Shown in pieces: positions 1,702 through 42,614 of a stretch of 64,000 nucleotides of DNA (position 1 is the stretch's first letter; every line of letters begins with the position of its first letter). The position numbers and the translations under genes are program-made. Origin of the DNA: Spirochaetia bacterium (GTDB taxonomy: Bacteria; Spirochaetota; Spirochaetia; SZUA-6; Bin103); the NCBI GenBank assembly GCA_965208575.1, contig CBDBOV010000006.1:960001-1024000 (forward strand). The letters run 5' to 3'. Below the pieces are notes generated by a model. It was not told where the DNA came from and made no database searches. It worked only from the letters and a program-made list of their open reading frames with translations.

Positions 1702-3249
1702 TTACAACATTCCTAGCTCCGGTGGTGTCCATTGCGTGTCCAAATCCAACGGCCAAACCGGTCGAGGGAGCCCTTTCCAGGAGAAGCGTGCCAGCACTGG
1801 CGACGTCAACCCCGCCGCATCGACTTCGAGAATCTGCTCGTGGCGATAATACTCATCAAAACCGGCACGAAAATGGCCACGAGATTTGATTGTCAAGGAA
1901 CGGAAACATCCGATGTCCAGAGAAAAACTCTCGAAAAAAGCAGGATCGGCACACTGCACCCGACGAGAACAGACAATCATGGTCAATCCTCCGCAGCGCA
2001 CCAACGCTGCACGGCCAAGTTTCGCTGTGCGTCCCCGATAAATCCCTCGTCTCCCAACAATGTTGCCATCGGACAGCCCCAGCACCTCTATTTCAGCCGG
2101 AACGGCTCGTCCCTGAGTGTCCGCGTTGGTTGCATTGAAAACGACCGGCAATCGTGCTCCGACCCCCGCCTCGTGGCAACGGGCGGCGACAACAGGGTCA
2201 ACGAAATTCCCGTACAGTGCATGTTGCACATTGGCCGCCAACAAACCTTCCAGAATATCCGTGGTGTTGCCGCGGCCTCCCCCACCTGGATTGTCAGCCA
2301 CATCGGCCAGACAAACCGTTGGCCCTCCAGGGCTCTGTCCGGCCTCTACTGCCCGCCGGATCGCTTCCTCAAGAGGAGTCAGGTGGAAACGAAAACGTTC
2401 CCGATCCGCCCACGCCATTTCTGCCAGTTTCAGGGCTAACTGTTTCGGTTTGCGGCCGGAACCATAGGTCAGGATGGTCAAGCAATTCTCCGGAGTATCG
2501 CCAAAAGCAAAACCGCCGACTACTGAAACCAACGGCAACTCCGGGCTGATCCAGCGTTGGCCTTCTGCAATCATATCCGCATAAGCGCCGTGAGCGGTGA
2601 GCAGCGTCACTGACGGAGGAGTGATCGGCATTCGAATCCAGGTTTTCTCCAGTCTTTCTCCGGAGAGCAACCGGCGCAGCAAATGAGCAGCTTCGGCAGC
2701 CCGCTCTCTTGCATCGACATGCGGATTGGTCCGGTAGGAAATTATCGCATCCACACTATGCACCATCCGCTCCGAGATGTTGGCGTGCAGATCGACTGTG
2801 GCGATCACCGGTTTGTTCATGCCCACAGCGTCACGGGCCAGCGCGTAAATTTCCCCATCTGGATCCGTTCCTCCGGTCGCTGTCATGGCCCCGTGATTGC
2901 TCACAAAAATCCCATCTAATGGCCCTGCCTCAGTCAGCATTGCCCGCATCCGAGCCATGCATTCATCCACAAAAGATTGCTCTGCCGGTCCTCCAGGTTC
3001 TGCACCAGCGATCACAATCGGCACTGGCTCCCAGGCACCGGCAGCGCTCATCGCTTCGATAAAGCCAGGAATTTCCGCAGGCATTGCCGGTGCCGATTTG
3101 GCTGCCTCTACCAATATTGCTTTGCCCTCCAGATAACCAAAATCCTTTTCTGTGGTCACCGGCGCGAAGGCGTTGCTCTCCAGATGCATCCCCAGCATCG
3201 CAATCCGGGGTTTCTCAACACTCATAAGCTCTGCGCTGACTGTCGTCAT
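1702..3249 (-). CDS. M81 family metallopeptidase (MlrC-like)
   Basis: HLESNAF, NHGAM, DLHAN, YRTNPHVD, DVADNPGGG, KSRGHFRA motifs; GGAGG RBS. Confidence 0.88.
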   Translation of the reverse strand: MTTVSAELMSVEKPRIAMLGMHLESNAFAPVTTEKDFGYLEGKAILVEAAKSAPAMPAEIPGFIEAMSAAGAWEPVPIVIAGAEPGGPAEQSFVDECMARMRAMLTEAGPLDGIFVSNHGAMTATGGTDPDGEIYALARDAVGMNKPVIATVDLHANISERMVHSVDAIISYRTNPHVDARERAAEAAHLLRRLLSGERLEKTWIRMPITPPSVTLLTAHGAYADMIAEGQRWISPELPLVSVVGGFAFGDTPENCLTILTYGSGRKPKQLALKLAEMAWADRERFRFHLTPLEEAIRRAVEAGQSPGGPTVCLADVADNPGGGGRGNTTDILEGLLAANVQHALYGNFVDPVVAARCHEAGVGARLPVVFNATNADTQGRAVPAEIEVLGLSDGNIVGRRGIYRGRTAKLGRAALVRCGGLTMIVCSRRVQCADPAFFESFSLDIGCFRSLTIKSRGHFRAGFDEYYRHEQILEVDAAGLTSPVLARFSWKGLPRPVWPLDLDTQWTPPELGML

Positions 3250-3369
3250 GTCCCTCCATCACCGATCCGTCGAACCTAAGCGAGACACGCTATCATAGGA
3301 GGCCGCGCCGCGCGCCCCCTCGTGCTGATCAGTCACGACCCCGCTGCACCTTACACAGCCCGGCGCTGG

Positions 3370-3490
3370 TTGACCTGGTCGGACGCGTTCCGGGCGCGCC
3401 TCTGGAGTTGCCAACGGCGCATGCACACCCGTGGCGGCAGGGAGGCTGCCGCGGGTGGAGGTCACCGGGCATCCGGCGTGACATTGCGGG
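3370..3490 (+). repeat. Dispersed ~120-bp repeat, copy 1 (inverted copy at ~7985-8108)
   Basis: Blocks ACCTGGTCGG.CGCGTTCCGGGCGCGCCTC.GGAGTTGCCAACGG and GGAGGTCACCG...GGCGTGACA are shared with the reverse complement of 7985-8108. Confidence 0.7.
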
Positions 3491-3531
3491 GCTCCGGGTC
3501 GGCGCCGTGAACTTCGTTCGCGCACACTCGC

Positions 3532-3558
3532 GGGTCCACGGGGTCCACGGGGTCCACG
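3532..3558. repeat. 9-bp tandem repeat GGGTCCACG x3
   Basis: Read directly; lies just upstream of TTGACA at 3581. Confidence 0.85.
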
Positions 3559-3631
3559 GGAGAAAGGCCGGAGTCCGCGCTTGACATGGTCAGGCGAGCC
3601 TGTGACGATAGGGAGTTCGGGGATTGAACGG

Positions 3632-3751
3632 ATGCCGACGAAGCGCCATGATGACAGCCAGCGCAGGGGCCGGTTGGCGGTGACGCGACCGGTGAATCAT
3701 CCCCCCCCCCCTTACCTTACGAGCCGAGCAACAACTAACCGCCCCGGCTGA
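3632..3751 (+). CDS. Putative leader peptide MPTKRHDDSQRRGRLAVTRPVNHPPPPY... (39 aa)
   Basis: Homologous to blocks at 14792(-), 21679(-), 24949(+) with synonymous changes; GGGGA 8 nt before ATG; downstream of TTGACA 3581. Confidence 0.5.
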   Translation: MPTKRHDDSQRRGRLAVTRPVNHPPPPYLTSRATTNRPG

Positions 3752-3945
3752 TCGCTCCGTACGCGACCCCGCGCACGCCGTCGCCTTCACCACCGCCGTA
3801 GCTATCGCTATCGGTGGCGCCGGCTCGGTCCATCGCCGAACCGGCATGCGGACCGCCCGCGCCCTTCCCGCCGACCGCAACCGTCCCGGATCGCCGCCCG
3901 CGACTGTCTACCGACGAGATCCACCGCGAAGGCGGTTCAACATGG

Positions 3946-4058
3946 TACTCAAAGAGCCGTAGGCGCGCGCGGCGTGAGCCGGGGCGAACCCGGATGAGTC
4001 ACACGCCGCGCGCTCTCAGGAACTTGACTCGGACTGGTCGCCCGCGTTGCGGGCGCGA
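3946..4058 (+). promoter_or_regulatory. Conserved 5' leader hairpin before SBP gene
   Basis: GCGCGCGGCGTG..CCGGG-GCGAA-CCCGG..CACGCCGCGCGC; homologous block at ~21156-21270 (-). Confidence 0.55.
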
Positions 4059-4083
4059 ATAGAGATCGACACAGGAGCTATGT

Positions 4084-5904
4084 ATGCAGATTGTACAATT
4101 CACAAGGACCTTCGCGGTTGCGTTGGTCCTGATTCTGACCGCAACCGGCCTCTGGGCCGCTGCCGCAGAAGAGGAGCAGGCAGCCGCTGCCGACAAGAAG
4201 TACGTGACCGACCCCACCACCGGCAAGGTGGTGGTGGCGCCGCAGTATGGCGGGACATTGACCTTCGTCATGAAGGTGGAGCCTCCGAGTGCTGACCCCG
4301 CGTTCGGCGCTGGGTCGTCAAGGGGCGCCGATGGTGTTGCAGAGAAGCTAGGCATCATGAACTGGGGACTAGATAGGGACGAATGGGACTTCACAAGTTT
4401 CTCCTTCCCTTTCTCTGTCTATAAAGGTCACCTGGCGGAAAGCTGGGAAATGCCCGACGACACAACCATCATCTTCCACATCCGCCAGGGCGTTCACTGG
4501 CATGATAAGGCACCGATGAACGGTCGGGAGCTAGATGCATACGACGTCGAATACAACTATCACCGCTATTTGGGTCTGGGCAGCGGCTTCACCGAACCGC
4601 CTGAAGGCTACGCTGGCTCACTCAAAGGCATGACAATATTCGAATCGGTAGAAGCCACCGACAAATGGACGGTTGTTGTTAAGCTGAAGCGGCCACAGGT
4701 CGCGGGGTCGGTGACTCAGACTACCATCGGCGACTGGCCTGTTTTTATGATGCCCCCTGAGGTAATCAAGGAACACGGCCACGTTAAGGATTGGAGGAAT
4801 CTGGTCGGCACCGGGCCCTATATGCTGACTGACTGGCTCGACGGCAGCTCTATGACCTGGGAAAAGAATCCTGACTACTGGGGCTTCGACGAAAAATATC
4901 CGGACAACCGCCTACCCTATATTGACCAGTTAAGGGGCCTGATTATGACAGAAGCCGCAACAATTCTGGCGACACTGCGCACGGGTAAGGCTGATTACGT
5001 AGGTCTCGCTGGCGCCGCTGAATCCGTCTATATCAAGGACCGAGAAAGCCTCAGCCGGACCAACCCCGAAATCGAATGGTACCCGTGGGCGTATAGGTCG
5101 GAAAGTTCTTTTGGTTTCAACATGGGCGGAGGCGAGGCGAGACCGCCCTTTGACGACGTCAGGGTGCGCCAGGCAATGCAGATGGCACTGGACCTTGAGA
5201 CGATTAACAATACCTTCTTTAGGGGTTTTGCCAAGTGGCAGCCTCGGGGCATGATAGGGGATGGCGTCAAAGGGTATAACACCCCATTTGAAGAGTGGCC
5301 CGAAGAGGTCAAGAAAGCCTATATGTATGACCCGGAAGGGGCAGAGGCGTTGCTTGATGAGGCTGGCTATCCGCGTGGCCCGGACGGCACGAGATTTAAG
5401 GTCGCCCTGGGACACTACGAGTTCTTCAGTTTAGACTATACACAATTAGCTGCCGCCTACTGGGCTGACATTGGCGTTCATGTCGACACTACCGTAAGGG
5501 ACCGAAGTGCTCATATTGCTGCTGAACGTGAACATACTTACGGAGATATGGTCACTGCGATTGCTGGCAACGACCCTTATGGCCCTCTCCTCCCGCTTGA
5601 ATGGTATTACTCAGGAGGCTACAGGAACCCCGCGAATCTCAACGATCCCGAATACGACCTCCTGTATGAAGCAGCCCGAGACGCTACCACCCTTGAGGAG
5701 CAGCAGAGGGCGGTTAAAGAGGCGGATATGTGGCTTATAAAGAACCACTTGTATGTATGGGGTCCTATAGATCCAAGGTTTGTCGCCATCCAGCCGTGGC
5801 TCATAGGCTATAACGGTGAATTAATGTTAGGACGGGATGACCGTAAGGCCTTGTTCGCCCGGCTCTGGATTGATAGTGCGCTGAAGAGAGAAATGGGCTT
5901 CTGA
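4084..5904 (+). CDS. ABC transporter family-5 solute-binding protein (Dpp/Opp-like), cassette 1
   Basis: Signal peptide, PQYGGT, LAESWE, IRQGVHWH, GTGPY, NPDYW, PFDDVRVRQAM, YDPEGAEALLDEAG; AGGAG RBS. Confidence 0.92.
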   Translation: MQIVQFTRTFAVALVLILTATGLWAAAAEEEQAAAADKKYVTDPTTGKVVVAPQYGGTLTFVMKVEPPSADPAFGAGSSRGADGVAEKLGIMNWGLDRDEWDFTSFSFPFSVYKGHLAESWEMPDDTTIIFHIRQGVHWHDKAPMNGRELDAYDVEYNYHRYLGLGSGFTEPPEGYAGSLKGMTIFESVEATDKWTVVVKLKRPQVAGSVTQTTIGDWPVFMMPPEVIKEHGHVKDWRNLVGTGPYMLTDWLDGSSMTWEKNPDYWGFDEKYPDNRLPYIDQLRGLIMTEAATILATLRTGKADYVGLAGAAESVYIKDRESLSRTNPEIEWYPWAYRSESSFGFNMGGGEARPPFDDVRVRQAMQMALDLETINNTFFRGFAKWQPRGMIGDGVKGYNTPFEEWPEEVKKAYMYDPEGAEALLDEAGYPRGPDGTRFKVALGHYEFFSLDYTQLAAAYWADIGVHVDTTVRDRSAHIAAEREHTYGDMVTAIAGNDPYGPLLPLEWYYSGGYRNPANLNDPEYDLLYEAARDATTLEEQQRAVKEADMWLIKNHLYVWGPIDPRFVAIQPWLIGYNGELMLGRDDRKALFARLWIDSALKREMGF

Positions 5905-8327: not shown

Positions 8328-9161
8328 ATGGCAAGAGAGCATCCAGTCCATACAGCGGTCGGAATGGAGCTGGTCAGGAAGCTCGCAGAGTCCGGTCAGC
8401 GCCTGTTCACGGCCGAAGACGCCCGCAAGGTTGCCCCGACTCTCGGCATATCTCCGGGCTACTTCCGGCAGGTGCTTCACCATCTGGCTCGGTCTGGTTG
8501 GGTCGTCCGCTTGAAGAAGGGGCTCTACTCACTTTCCGGGTCGGTTCCGGGCGTGACGCCGGTCCACGAGTTCGAGATCGCGATGGCGCTGGTCAAGCCT
8601 GCGGCTGTCAGCCACTGGTCGGCCCTCAGCCACCACGGCCTCACCGAACAGGCGCCTCGGCGTGTGTTCGCGCTTACCACCTCCGGGTGGGTGCCTCGGC
8701 GCCGCCACGCGAAGGCGCAACGCACCGACGAGGGCTACCCGGTGGGCGAGACCACCTACCAGTTCGTCCAGGTCAATTCCGAACGGTTTTTCGGTATCGA
8801 GGACGTATGGGTACACGAGGCCCGAATCAAGATCACCGACCCCGAGCGGACGCTGCTGGACGGCCTCACACGGCCCCGGTACTGCGGCGACTTCTTCGAG
8901 GTGCTCCATGCCTTCGAGGTCCGGGCCCCCAAGCTCGATGTGGACCGCATCGTCCGCTACGCACTCGAGCTGGACGGCGCGACGGCCAAGCGCCTCGGCT
9001 GGATCTTGGAACAGCAAGGGGTCGGGAGCGATCAGCTTGTACCGCTCCGCCAGGTGGCGACTAAGGGATACCGCGTGCTCGACCCGACCGGCCCGCGCCA
9101 GGGCCCCTGCGACGCCGCCTGGATGATCCAGGTTAATCTACCGGGAAAAGTGCCGTCATGA
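8328..9161 (+). CDS. abiEi: Type IV TA antitoxin AbiEi family
   Basis: N-terminal wHTH (RLKKGLY), SHWSALSHHGLTEQ, ITDPERTLLD, KRLGWILE; coupled to a nucleotidyltransferase gene. Confidence 0.85.
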   Translation: MAREHPVHTAVGMELVRKLAESGQRLFTAEDARKVAPTLGISPGYFRQVLHHLARSGWVVRLKKGLYSLSGSVPGVTPVHEFEIAMALVKPAAVSHWSALSHHGLTEQAPRRVFALTTSGWVPRRRHAKAQRTDEGYPVGETTYQFVQVNSERFFGIEDVWVHEARIKITDPERTLLDGLTRPRYCGDFFEVLHAFEVRAPKLDVDRIVRYALELDGATAKRLGWILEQQGVGSDQLVPLRQVATKGYRVLDPTGPRQGPCDAAWMIQVNLPGKVPS

Positions 9162-10030
9162 AGCCGCTGCGGGTTCGACTGCAGGAAGCCCGCAAACGGC
9201 TGGGGATTCCCTGGGAGGTGCTCGAACGGGACTACCTCCTCTCGTGGCTTCTGGCCGGCATCGAGGAAGTGGACGTGCTCCGCGACACCATCGCGTTCAA
9301 GGGCGGGACCGCGCTCAAGAAGTGCTACTTTGGCGACTACCGTTTTTCCGTAGACCTGGATTTCAGTGCCGTCGGCTCGGCTCCGACTGGCGCAGCGATG
9401 GAGTCTTCAATCCGCGACGCGTGCGCTGCGGCCACAGAACTCCTCGCTGCCTACACACCCGTCGAAATCGTGTGCGAGCGACACGTCGAGCGGGACCCGC
9501 ACCCTTCCGGCCAGGAGGCGTTCGACATCTGGGCACGATTCTCGTGGCATCGATCCACGCAGACCAAAGTCATGATCGAGACCACGATGGACGAATTGGT
9601 GCTGAAACCCGCGGTCCGGCGATCGATGCACCACGACTACGGCGAGCCACTCGACGTCCAGATCCTGGTCTATTCGCTGGAGGAGATCGTGGCCGAGAAG
9701 CTGCGTGCCATCCTCCAGCACCTGCGTTCGCTGGAGCGGCGGGGCTGGGTGCGTTCGCGAGCCCGGGACTACTACGACCTGTGGCGGATCTTGAGCACGC
9801 ACGGCGACCATCTGGATGTTTCGGGCTTCGATTCCTTCCTTCGAGAGAAATGCAGCCTCAGGAACGTCATGTTCTCCGGCGCCGAAAGCTTCTTCCCGCA
9901 GGCGATGCTCGCGATGGTGGAGAAGAGCTGGAAGCGGTGGCTTGGACCGCTGGTTCCGAACCTCCCGCAGTACAACACCGTTATCGGGGAACTCCGACCG
10001 ATGGTCGCCTCGGTGCTCAGCCCGAAGTAG
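9158..10030 (+). CDS. abiEii: Type IV TA toxin AbiEii nucleotidyltransferase
   Basis: ERDY, FKGGTALKKCY, RFSVDLDF, EEIVAEKLRA, RARDYYDLW; ATGA overlap. Confidence 0.9.
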   Translation: MKPLRVRLQEARKRLGIPWEVLERDYLLSWLLAGIEEVDVLRDTIAFKGGTALKKCYFGDYRFSVDLDFSAVGSAPTGAAMESSIRDACAAATELLAAYTPVEIVCERHVERDPHPSGQEAFDIWARFSWHRSTQTKVMIETTMDELVLKPAVRRSMHHDYGEPLDVQILVYSLEEIVAEKLRAILQHLRSLERRGWVRSRARDYYDLWRILSTHGDHLDVSGFDSFLREKCSLRNVMFSGAESFFPQAMLAMVEKSWKRWLGPLVPNLPQYNTVIGELRPMVASVLSPK

Positions 10031-14719: not shown

Positions 14720-14792
14720 ACGCCTCGGGCGTCGGTCTTTCGGGCGCTAACCGGTGGCAGTGCTGAGTAGTGTTACCACGTGTCCGTAGCAT
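14720..14792 (-). other. Divergent copy of the leader-peptide block MLRTRGNTTQHCHRLAPERPTP (frame stays open to 14322)
   Basis: Keeps R-x4-Q-x3-RLA-xx-RP spacing; downstream of TTGACG (~14845, -). Confidence 0.4.
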
Positions 14793-15029
14793 GCGTTCAG
14801 ACCCGTTACGCCTACCATGGCACACCTGTGGCAACCACGTCAATAGGTCCGGCCAACGACACGTCCGCATTCGTCCGCCTGACGCGCCACTGTGGAGCGA
14901 CCCGACTCTGTGGTACACTGGAGCGCGCTCAACGGAGGGAAACGAGTTCCATGACCGAACGGTCCCGGACTACTGTCGAACTTGGAACGCTGGTTTCTCA
15001 TTAAACCTGAGTATAGAAAGGAATTGTCC

Positions 15030-21091: not shown

Positions 21092-21619
21092 GGTTTTCTC
21101 CACAAATGTGTTCTTGAGAGTATTGCGGAACGGATTGCCGCTCCCTGGCTACTCTCGCGCCCGCAACGCAGACGGCCGGCCAGACAGAGTCAGATTTGTG
21201 AAGCGCGCGACGTGTGACTCACCGGGTTCACCCCCGCTCACGCCGCGCGCGTGCGGCTCTTTGAGTATCAATTTGCACCCCCTCGGTCGGGCGCAGATGT
21301 GCCCCTCTCTCTGAAGTCCCGGCAACGCCGGTTGATGTAGACTGGTGGAGGTTGCGGCCGACGCGGTCCGCCGCCACACGCACGGCTGTGTGCCGCGCGG
21401 ATCGATGGTGCCGCGGTCAGCACCGCAACGACCGGGCGCGGCTGACCGCGGTGAGCCAGGTGCAGGCGGACGGCGAGGCCGGCGCCGAGCGGCTGGCTGT
21501 CGCGCGGTTAGGTTAGGTAGTCGGGTACAGGGGGGGGCGTAGTCGGCGGCTGGGCTGGATGCTGTCAGTGCCCATTCGCGGACGAGTGGAGAGGACGGCC
21601 CAATCCGTGTCAAGCGCGA

Positions 21620-21716
21620 CCCACCGCGTTGTGTCACCGCCAACCCGTCAATGCGCTGACTGTCATCATGGCGCTTCATCCGAGGCACCCTAGTATGGGC
21701 GCGGCGCGCCTGTCAA
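21620..21716 (-). promoter_or_regulatory. Promoter plus leader-peptide block MKRHDDSQRIDGLAVTQR
   Basis: TTGACA-N18-TAGGGT-N7-ATG(21679); block homologous to 3632 and 24949; frame open to 21149. Confidence 0.55.
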
Positions 21717-24483: not shown

Positions 24484-24948
24484 CATCAGCGACAGCACGC
24501 CATCGCTCGCGCGCAGCGAAGCTCGCGTACCGCCGCGCAGGACCAAATGCGACGTACCGCACCATTGCGCAGCGCCGATCATCAGGATTGCCGGCCACCG
24601 CAAGCTGGAACAAGTCGGGGGCAACGGCGACCCTGACGGTCCTTGACTCTGTCAGAGGTGCGGGCAGTGTCGGAGCACTCGGGCAGCGCTCATGGCTCTA
24701 GGATATGTGGCGGCTCACGCCTCGGGAGTCTTCAAGGAGTTGGAAAAGCTCCACCAATTATTCGCACCCGTAGTCTCGTGGTCCCAGGAAGTTCGCTGGC
24801 ATATTCTGATCAACGATGGGACACTCGCACCGACGACCGGGAATGCGTTTACGAGTGGTGCAGACCTTATTTCCTCGCTCGCAATTCGCGCTGTTTGACA
24901 GGTGGCCGCGCTCGTGAGAGAGTGCACCGTTAGAGGTTTGACGGATCG

Positions 24949-25035
24949 ATGATGACGCGTCATGACGACATTCAGCGCAATAACCGGCTGGCGGTGACGC
25001 GACCGGTGCCCCCCCCCGCAGCTTCAGTAGCGTAA
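24949..25035 (+). CDS. Putative leader peptide MMTRHDDIQRNNRLAVTRPVPPPAASVA (28 aa)
   Basis: Homolog of 3632 and 21679 blocks; downstream of TTGACA at 24895. Confidence 0.5.
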   Translation: MMTRHDDIQRNNRLAVTRPVPPPAASVA

Positions 25036-25445
25036 ATCTTTCAAGCGTAAACAGTAATACCAACCACTGGCGGCCCTCGTTATCGGGCGCCTCCGCGCGC
25101 GTCGACCACCGCAGACCACTACCCGCCATCTCCAATCCCCCGGCGTTGCCGGACATGGGAACAAGCCACCGGCGAGTCGCCGCCACGCCTCCGGTCGGCG
25201 TGCGCCTGCGACCAACCGGTCCGCTTACGAGGGGGTGCCCGTGAAGTTGTAGTCCACACCACGGGACGCGGTCGACGCCCCCGCGGTGATCGCCCCCGGG
25301 TCAACTCGAAACTCGAAGTCGTCACCCTCGTCGGAAACAACTGCGCCGCACCCACACCCGGCACAGACCGGCACACAGGCCTTGAGAGCAGCCCGGGGGT
25401 CGACACCGAAGTGTGCTCTCAAAGCATAGGAGCATAGGAGTACGA

Positions 25446-42154: not shown

Positions 42155-42315
42155 GCCCGGCCGGGTCGCGACGCCAACAGCACGACAGTGACCGCGGTTC
42201 GCGGGCTGGCGGAGCGGACGTAAGACCGTGCAGTTCGGCGAGAATCCACGTCGCTCGGTGGCGCGCGGGATCGTTGACGACATGGCGGCGCCGGTCATAC
42301 ACTTCGGGGTACAGA

Positions 42316-42463
42316 GAACTTCGGGGCATGGTGTAATTCCAGACCGGTGGTGATGGGCGCCCCTGTGGCGCGCGCAGCCCACTACTCCCGTTCGCCTCCC
42401 GCGGGCGGGACTGAACCGGTGCAATTCCGGTGCCGACGGTAACAGTCCGGATGGGAGAAGTTC
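42316..42463 (+). ncRNA. FMN riboswitch (RFN element)
   Basis: TTCGGGGCATGGTGTAATTCC.GACCGGTGGT...AGCCC...CCGGTGCAATTCCGGTGCCGACGGT..AGTCCGGATGGGAGAAG upstream of ribD. Confidence 0.93.
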
Positions 42464-42614
42464 CGACCGACTTTCCTCGTGCGCACAGGCGCTGATGGTG
42501 CGCCCGGATGCCGGTCCGCGGCATCGGGCAGCCGGCGGCATGGTGCGCCGATGCGGCCCCACGCGGCGGTGGTGCGCACGCGCGCTCCGCCGGTGCAGGA
42601 GTTCTCGAAGCGTG

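Follow-up and report, generated by a model that had tools for sequence, protein, structure and literature searches.

A repeated leader cassette with two short reading frames and a poly-C tract ahead of peptide-type transporter genes in a sponge-associated spirochaete genus

Background

Four genes for solute-binding proteins (SBPs) of ATP-binding cassette (ABC) transporters in a 64,000-nucleotide (nt) stretch from a Spirochaetia bacterium (GCA_965208575.1, contig CBDBOV010000006.1, positions 960,001-1,024,000, forward strand; hereafter the window) are each preceded by a leader in which a promoter-like hexamer is followed by related sequence beginning with ATG (block 1). What this block does, and whether it is read as a peptide, is the question raised by the locus; an earlier note made from the sequence had proposed an arrest-peptide or cis-RNA system controlling an expanded transporter family. 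Block 1 belongs to a repeated cassette that fronts dozens of ABC transporter genes of the peptide type (SBP_bac_5) within one sponge-associated genus, and the leader modules are unannotated, are not in Rfam and are more conserved than the genes behind them. The stretch is present in runs labelled sponge metagenome or metatranscriptome, and a pattern scan of named genome records returned 10 stretches only, in three records of metagenome-assembled genomes (OZ253572.1, JAPPLW010000016.1, JAPPJZ010000032.1). No description of leaders of such kind was found in open-access literature text.

Anatomy and copy number of the leader cassette

All four copies, with their TTGACA or TTGACG hexamers and ATGs at 3632 (+), 21679 (-), 24949 (+) and 14792 (-), lie where the earlier note had placed them, and its translations (MPTKRHDDSQRRGRLAVTRPV..., MKRHDDSQRIDGLAVTQR..., MMTRHDDIQRNNRLAVTRPVP...) were reproduced. 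The four genes behind them are SBP_bac_5 (E 1e-63 to 4e-67). Leader 1 carries two further conserved modules beyond block 1 that had gone unnoticed, and comprises the following features (ORF, open reading frame; sORF, short ORF; aa, amino acids).

3581-3586 (+): putative -35 hexamer TTGACA; model positions 5-10 conserved at 0.87-1.0 over the aligned copies
3604-3609 (+): -10-like hexamer GACGAT, 17 nt after the -35, matching 3/6 bases
3632-3694 (+): conserved block 1 (ATG and first 21 codons of sORF1), 68 nhmmer matches in the genome
3632-3751 (+): sORF1 in its leader 1 copy, 39 aa, stop TGA, poly-C read as PPPP
3648-3683 (+): overlapping 11-codon frame, present, with poorly kept starts and no coding signal
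3701-3711 (+): poly-C tract of leader 1 (11 C), read from the sequence
3712-3941 (+): conserved spacer of type A, 25 nhmmer matches in the genome
3735-3833 (-): antisense 32-codon ORF within the spacer, synonymous excess in simulations
3942-3962 (+): sORF2 of leader 1 (MVLKEP*; family form MILKEPHARAA*), with start codon, GGAGG and coding signal
3965-4013 (+): predicted hairpin P1 (3965-3977 pairs with 3999-4013) with inner hairpin 3979-3993; 98.4% of cells paired, 58 sequences
4039-4055 (+): predicted hairpin P2 (7-bp stem, loop GUU); paired cells 94.1%, two-sided changes in 2 pairs
4073-5904 (+): ribosome-binding site AGGAG (4073-4077) and SBP_bac_5 gene (4084-5904; PF00496, E 7.9e-64)

Block 1 was searched with nhmmer in the 6.5-Mb genome, the profile being seeded with three window copies. 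The first round gave 50 matches at E<1e-3 (best 4.7e-32) and the second 68 at E<1e-2, a similarity far beyond chance. The unit measures ~125 bp, and 23 of the 68 make up 11 tandem arrays that repeat every ~125-145 bp. An ORF of at least 450 aa begins within 1.5 kb of 59 of the 68 matches (47 distinct genes). Among the unique ORFs behind units, 35 of 40 are paralogs of the window SBP at 25-63% identity, typically SBP_bac_5 proteins of ~600 aa, which bears out the view of block 1 as a family-wide, promoter-proximal element in the leaders of an expanded SBP family. The more distant fourth copy at 14792 (-) is present, but it is absent from the 68 matches of the hidden Markov model; by eye it resembles a diverged subfamily (C5_196108).

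A second conserved stretch (block 2), ~165 nt long and directly ahead of the SBP start, has 61 matches in the genome. Counting tblastn pieces of at least 350 aa, the genome holds 129 SBP paralogs, of which 43 have block 1 upstream, 58 have block 2, 33 have both and 61 have neither. With at most 22 candidates scored per genome, block 1 was found in 5 of the 10 congeneric genomes searched, in arrays of up to six units, and it was not found in the 30 genomes searched from other genera of the same order. Two of the five congeners lacking it are single-contig assemblies and ~95% complete; the other three are fragmented and 76-88% complete, so that their blanks mean little. Block 2, scored under the same limit, occurs in 6 of the 10 congeners, and elsewhere as one weak 37-nt match.

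The identity of units and that of the adjacent SBPs are uncorrelated (Spearman -0.02; 561 pairs, 34 loci), and units up to 98% identical sit beside proteins that are 40-65% identical. Against a locus in a different genome, leader 1 shows 88% identity over its first 367 nt, and the SBP genes behind the two leaders only ~68%. The leader is therefore strongly constrained, exchanged between loci, or both.

Block 1: frame, nucleotide conservation and structure

Start and frame statistics were compiled over 120 unique copies from the genome itself and from fetched loci of other genomes. An in-frame ATG is kept in 116 of them, the start codons being ATG at model positions 56, 59, 62 or 65. Within -15 to +8 of model position 62, 206 ATGs are in frame (four positions with 72, 22, 92 and 18 copies, a fifth with 2) and 5 are out of frame. 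The main ATG is missing from 28 copies, 24 of which have another in-frame ATG, the other four being low-scoring, partial model matches; 108 of the 120 run through the first 19 codons without a stop. Of the 39 copies with a poly-C tract, 30 have 51 nt between the start and a 3' anchor and 7 have 45, 48 or 57 nt, so that 37 preserve the frame and two (50 nt, 52 nt) do not. The frame chosen by the earlier note is the only one of three to stay open in 27 unique indel-free cores, frames +1 and +2 carrying stops in 27/27 and 25/27. The block had also been called indel-free, which is true of three window copies but not of the family, as only 31 of the 120 unique copies are indel-free at model positions 56-121; many indel-bearing copies are upstream units of arrays with a differing 3' part.

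An ORF is thus maintained in block 1, and its amino-acid sequence is at best weakly selected. The claim of a conserved leader peptide stands for start codon and frame, but the frame-wise synonymous bias that should accompany it is absent from 68 unique copies and weak in the 31 indel-free ones, so that conservation is mainly at the nucleotide level. The 57-nt block has a mean conservation of ~0.82-0.86 at each codon position, and the promoter spacer and 5' untranslated region (UTR) ~0.65-0.68. The overlapping 11-codon frame at 3648-3683 exists as described, but its starts are poorly kept (T73 0.63, T76 0.55) and its synonymous share is the lowest, and it was rejected as coding.

Every approach to structure in block 1 was negative. 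The GUGA-capped hairpin suspected there has a 3-bp stem, RNAalifold predicts no pair and no consensus structure, and a compensatory-pair screen gave isolated pairs that track subfamilies and no stacked covarying pairs. The transcript 3616-3712 is less structured than shuffles (z = +0.83), as expected of a translation start region. In Rfam (release 15) the leader has no match at the gathering score, and at E up to 10 two microRNA chance matches only; the sole gathering-score match of the window is an FMN riboswitch (RF00050, 96.4 bits) at 42313-42466 (+), ahead of an 885-codon ORF. These results lend no support to a cis-RNA structure seated in block 1. Part of the block presumably resembles an ops-type pause site, and an ops/RfaH-type site was considered and dropped, because only a single NusG-family match (PF02357) was found in the genome, which is 95% complete.

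The poly-C tract, the spacer and frame continuity

The poly-C tract is associated with the block: 20 of the 42 C/G homopolymers of at least 9 nt in the 6.5-Mb genome lie directly behind a block-1 match on the same strand. Across 47 copies the tract is 6-55 nt long and is read as proline, a run of codons for a single amino acid as in leaders of the his and mgtP type. Copies with identical 45-nt upstream flanks have 9 and 12 C; this comparison of near-identical flanks holds 2 informative pairs only, 1 of them differing. The tract is placed where its length sets the reading frame, and all three downstream frames occur among the copies. Downstream of it the frame is not conserved, the same nucleotides being read ...NRETTNRSG* or ...TEKQLTAPADRP.... 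A putative C-rich, G-poor entry site and a rho gene, as looked for in a Rho-dependent attenuator, are both present.

The commonest spacer (type A) is at least 90% conserved at most positions among paralogs, with indels of 6, 12, 3 and 18 nt, and the spacer types are not homologous to one another. The sense frame of the type A spacer was rejected as a protein for want of a coding signal. On the opposite strand, the ORF at 3735-3833 (-) (MDRAGATDS...AISRGG*) has 57 synonymous changes where 40.6 ± 5.6 were expected, a value reached in 0 of 300 simulations, with substitutions of 75/55/50 by phase. Its stop adjoins a terminator-like hairpin at 3749-3737 (-), its ATG is absent in 5 of 15 aligned copies, and no ribosome-binding site or promoter was seen for it by eye.

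Continuity of frame extends beyond block 1. Leader 1 has no stop in the sORF2 frame as far back as the poly-C tract (3693-3962); sORF1 is read one base off this frame. Genome-wide, 22 of 29 leaders lack a stop in the sORF2 frame between poly-C and the sORF2 start (other two frames: 1 and 8), against an expectation by shuffling of 4.9 and a maximum of 15 in 1000, and this holds in all five homology clusters (3/3, 15/22, 1/1, 1/1, 2/2) at spacers of 127-772 nt. An unbroken ORF begins at the first ATG in 13 of 26 leaders and ends at the stop of sORF2 or at one abutting its start. Leader 2 has such an ORF of 176 codons (21679-21149, -) passing through sORF2 (TTG at 21274). Gene callers have predicted 12 unnamed ORFs of 92-164 aa in other assemblies, which align from MKRHDD... 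to ...MILKEPHARAA over their full length at 41-92% identity; a Pfam scan of two full leader ORFs returned no family.

Other spacer types were observed alongside. Those of type B contain heptamer tandem repeats, (CCGACTA)n, of very variable copy number (21505-21540, -; also in a leader at G000 C3:287771), and each repeat, being 7 nt long, shifts the frame. In a third leader type, GAGGGGGTG is followed by a three-codon ORF (GTG AAG nnn stop) that replaces sORF2 (25220-25260, +; also in a leader at G000 C6:943212). Some leaders, 0.9-1.3 kb in length, share an insert (G000 C4:537931, C4:538067, C4:540388 and C6:950791), whose long ORFs, rich in Arg and Pro, give the impression of lying on the wrong strand of another sequence; it is possibly a mobile insertion.

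sORF2 and the hairpin set

Block 2 opens with GGAGG, ~6 nt, and ATG ATA CTC AAA GAA CCG ... TGA (MILKEPHARAA*). The start of sORF2 is ATG, GTG or TTG in 46 of the 57 copies of the genome, mostly with GGAGG ~6 nt upstream. Substitutions were counted on a minimum spanning tree and synonymous excess was judged against simulations, here as for the other frames. Changes in the K, E and P codons are nearly confined to the third position (0/0/6, 1/0/9 and 0/3/9), and codons 2-6 show 13 synonymous changes where 7.6 ± 2.3 were expected, reached in 7 of 500 simulations; for the two remaining frames the figures are 0/17 and 4/11. The clearer-coding leader peptide of these leaders is sORF2 (3942-3962), not the block-1 peptide to which attention had been drawn.

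The last codons and the stop of sORF2 lie within the 5' arm of the 13-bp GC hairpin P1, just upstream of the ribosome-binding site of the SBP gene. Over the hairpin set, 94.1% of cells are paired (58 sequences), compared with 21-60% when the partners are slid, and 8 pairs have changed on both sides where 3.7 ± 1.3 were expected (reached in 2 of 500); P1 itself is nearly invariant, so that covariation cannot speak for it. The block-2 copy of leader 1 folds with z = -2.11. No T-run stands behind hairpins P1, P2 or P3, no terminator-like site was found on the + strand of 3450-4120, and no alternative terminator/antiterminator hairpin pair with a U-tract (his or mgtP type) was found in that range of leader 1. 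Together, sORF2 and the hairpin set are a good candidate for a new cis-regulatory family.

Promoter and RNA evidence

At the head of the unit, the -10-like hexamer, 17 nt past a nearly invariant TTGACA, keeps across the family only A at position 2 (0.99) and T at position 6 (0.94), and a G-run (0.69-0.92) follows ~10 nt past it. A consensus promoter scan called no promoter in leader 1, whose -10 hexamer agrees with the consensus at just 3 of 6 bases. On the family-wide pattern of conservation, the head of the unit is assigned a sigma-70-type promoter. In leader 2 the -10-like TAGGGT (21692-21687, -) was observed 7 nt ahead of the sORF1 ATG at 21679, a distance that would make its mRNA leaderless or almost leaderless.

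Position 3639 within block 1 is covered by contigs that come from two studies and four RNA libraries. These runs are kept as contigs, which give no start, strand or level; their depth cannot rank the parts of the leader and uncovered stretches are uninformative. The contigs are compatible with transcription of the block and do not prove it. A joint at 3759-3946, present in one contig per run with a 26-nt short side, was taken for a paralogue with a shorter spacer.

Other units and neighbours in the window

The remaining block-1 units of the window are as follows.

21149-21716 (-): leader 2; putative -35 TTGACA 21716-21711, TAGGGT 21692-21687, block 1 21679-21622
24895-25035 (+): leader 3; putative -35 TTGACA 24895-24900, GAGAGT 24918-24923, sORF1 24949-25035, poly-C 25009-25017
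14727-14843 (-): leader 4; TTGACG 14843-14838, diverged block from ATG 14792
3231-3299 (-): truncated unit, ending with the first half of block 1 and joined to the start of an M81/MlrC-like peptidase gene; nhmmer match and sequence

The peptidase gene (1702-3249, -) is one of the other genes found behind a unit. Its locus has the promoter and the first half of block 1; ATG 3249, which belongs to the overlapping frame, is in the peptidase frame, and the bases before it are GGAGG, replacing the usual family sequence. Behind another unit lies an ORF that, judged by eye, is like a DppB-type permease. Directly behind the permease genes of the first transporter, an AbiEi/AbiEii type IV toxin-antitoxin pair was observed at 8328-10030 (+).

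Proposed mechanism

The reading we tentatively prefer is that block 1 opens a long, modular, translated leader, in which the poly-C tract sets whether ribosomes cross and so gates premature, probably Rho-dependent termination. Ribosomes would initiate at the first ATG and then meet the poly-C tract, read there as proline codons. Depending on tract length, slippage or stalling, they would either cross as far as the sORF2 stop in P1 or stop 30-130 nt past the tract. An untranslated leader headed by poly-C would be a strong Rho entry site and transcription would end early; a translated or ribosome-occupied leader would allow read-through with the hairpin opened. On this proposal the act of translation and the frame would matter, not the amino-acid sequence of the first peptide. 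Rho-dependent termination would be the most economical output because Rho binds best to poly-C with C-rich RNA behind it, rho and efp are present in the genome (Rho RNA-binding domain, 115.6 bits) and no intrinsic terminator was found. The rho gene (G000 C4:1156992-1157210, -) sits in a 680-codon open frame, and the Rho of this bacterium probably has a long extra N-terminal region.

Several observations weigh against this proposal. Over the 68 unique copies of block 1, substitutions fall 87/74/90 on codon positions 1/2/3 and synonymous changes number 53 where 50.0 ± 6.1 are expected (reached in 175 of 500 simulations); the signal is weak in the 31 copies that are free of indels and for the most part gene-proximal (56/73/86), 54 against 42.8 ± 6.0, reached in 21 of 500. 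Conservation is nearly equal at the three codon positions (~0.85, 0.86, 0.82), for which the model offers no explanation, and the ribosome-binding signal before sORF1 is weak (G54 0.87, G55 0.55, GGGG 0.69-0.92). The phase between sORF1 and sORF2 is 9:3:4 in 16 poly-C leaders, indistinguishable from chance, and a canonical start is missing in 11 of 57 sORF2 copies. Upstream units of tandem arrays have block 1 without poly-C, which the model likewise leaves unexplained. Over the 150 nt past the tract, C exceeds G moderately (0.386 and 0.268), and the difference of 0.118 lies below the random 95th percentile, 0.147. No coding signal was obtained for the sense frame of the type A spacer (52 synonymous changes against 47.7 ± 6.1, reached in 83 of 300), its first codon position being the most variable (75/55/50), and the antisense ORF, in codon register with it, could open the sense frame as a by-product over ~100 nt and is itself outside the model's reach. 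The RNA contigs are 90% like the leader and have another base at 3639, so that they come from relatives or paralogs, and carry-over of DNA into the libraries is possible. Finally, the copies are kin and exchange sequence, so that counts over copies overstate their independence.

A bolder form of the same proposal, which we consider rather unlikely, is that the poly-C tract of each operon is a hypermutable switch, acting by DNA or transcription slippage, that gates traversal of the ~300-700-nt leader to sORF2 and the hairpin and thereby Rho polarity. If true, the 129-member SBP family of an animal symbiont would be under combinatorial, heritable or stochastic on/off control, the contingency-locus principle acting via the continuity of an upstream ORF and not via the regulated gene. 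If the preferred reading is true, one portable module (promoter, two upstream ORFs, poly-C, hairpin) is attached to a family of 129 transporter paralogs, giving a testable handle on substrate-import choice by uncultured sponge symbionts; it would join Rho termination gated by an upstream ORF to homopolymer slippage, a combination not found described in open-access text.

Alternative explanations

It is possible, if doubtful, that block 1 is an untranslated signal in a portable promoter-leader cassette, either a protein or small-RNA site on the transcript or a DNA operator just past the start site, and that its ATGs and frame are accidental. The even conservation over codon positions and the lack of a synonymous excess in the 68 unique copies favour such a signal, as does the higher conservation of the block than of the promoter spacer and 5' UTR. 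TGAC also recurs at 14-15-nt steps, GGTGAC-type repeats multiply in tandem arrays, and the first half of block 1 travels with the promoter alone before the peptidase gene. However, the ATGs change place only within the frame, and the block, 57 nt of even conservation without symmetry, is rather long to be an operator. No structure, covarying helix or fitting Rfam family was found in the block, and no factor emerged as a candidate, a specialised paralogue of NusG not being detected.

The uncoupling of leader from gene (Spearman -0.02; 88% identity in the leader and ~68% in the gene), the tandem arrays with their variously combined modules, and the restriction to one genus (5/10 congeners, 0/30 genomes searched of other genera) also suit a selfish or neutral mobile promoter repeat, homogenised by recombination and kept for a strong promoter, in which block 1 has no regulatory role of its own. 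This seems fairly improbable, as block 1 is more conserved than neighbouring positions of the unit and strongly linked with a single gene family and a single orientation, while poly-C specifically follows the block and the frame is kept across spacers of 127-772 nt.

Unlikely is a reading of the whole leader ORF as a small protein gene of ~92-190 aa (MPMKRHDD..., proline run, ...MILKEPHARAA) that is co-transcribed with the SBP gene and switched by poly-C length. Such a gene would account for the unbroken ORFs in 13 of 26 leaders and the open frame, for the 12 predicted proteins that align over their full length at 41-92% identity, and for spacer indels of 6, 12, 3 and 18 nt. Yet no Pfam family was found, the spacer types are non-homologous, protein-level selection is seen neither in the spacer frame nor in sORF1 (large set), the Arg/Pro/Ala-rich composition is like that of out-of-frame GC-rich DNA, and sORF2 has its own ribosome-binding site.

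A sequence-specific arrest peptide of the TnaC/SecM/SpeFL type encoded by block 1, with a ligand sensed in the exit tunnel, as the earlier note had it, is very unlikely: the open frame, the kept start codon, the weak synonymous excess in 31 indel-free copies and the recurrence of ...(V/I)TQPV(H/R)PPP in diverged subfamilies speak for it, but the larger set has no synonymous excess, variation at first and second codon positions alters residues (conservation of 0.51-0.67 at positions 66, 92 and 93), copy C4_755776 keeps the nucleotides in a shifted frame, and the frame past poly-C is not conserved.

Comparison with known systems

Rho binds best to poly-C with C-rich RNA behind it, and Rho-dependent attenuation controlled by an upstream ORF is known for tnaC, speFL, cruR and hisL, according to the available part of the text of the review PMC12360218. 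As far as that text describes these systems, the present leaders are alike in that a short ORF heads a long leader, a C-rich stretch beside or inside the ORF could load Rho, there is no intrinsic terminator, and the position of the ribosome would decide read-through. They differ in having no demonstrable conserved arrest sequence, dozens of copies, tandem units and a second upstream ORF, and in that the putative Rho entry site is pure poly-C of variable length inside the ORF.

Gall et al. (2016), among the references of PMC12360218, reportedly concerns the proline-codon leaders mgtL and mgtP. In the accessible portions of PMC5299641 and PMC6460261, these leaders and their dependence on elongation factor P (EF-P) are described for Salmonella, and in that of PMC5021804 EF-P is treated together with transcription-translation coupling. 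Set beside mgtL and mgtP as portrayed there, consecutive proline codons in a leader ORF could here too slow ribosomes and set transporter transcription, and efp is present; the proline run of the present leaders is instead a homopolymer of 2 to ~18 codons that alters the downstream frame.

Phase variation by homopolymeric tracts is the hallmark of contingency loci (PMC3025981), and the invertible switches fim and flgB vary phase through Rho termination within leaders (PMC12360218), both as given in the excerpts of these sources. The poly-C tract shares with contingency loci, as so described, a slippage-prone run in which one base more or less changes the frame, but it would lie in a leader ORF and not in the regulated gene or a promoter spacer. 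The Rho-linked switches of that account are DNA inversions, in contrast to the homopolymer tract found here.

Repeated intergenic elements that bear promoters ('mobile promoters') are a known class. The units resemble them in being multi-copy and promoter-bearing, with a similarity uncoupled from the adjacent genes, and differ in keeping to a single paralogous gene family and a single orientation; neither terminal repeats nor a transposase were noticed at the units, and no systematic search for them was made. Taken by their anatomy, the block-bearing leaders would work most like Rho attenuators gated by an upstream ORF and like proline-codon leaders, possibly with an element of the contingency locus.

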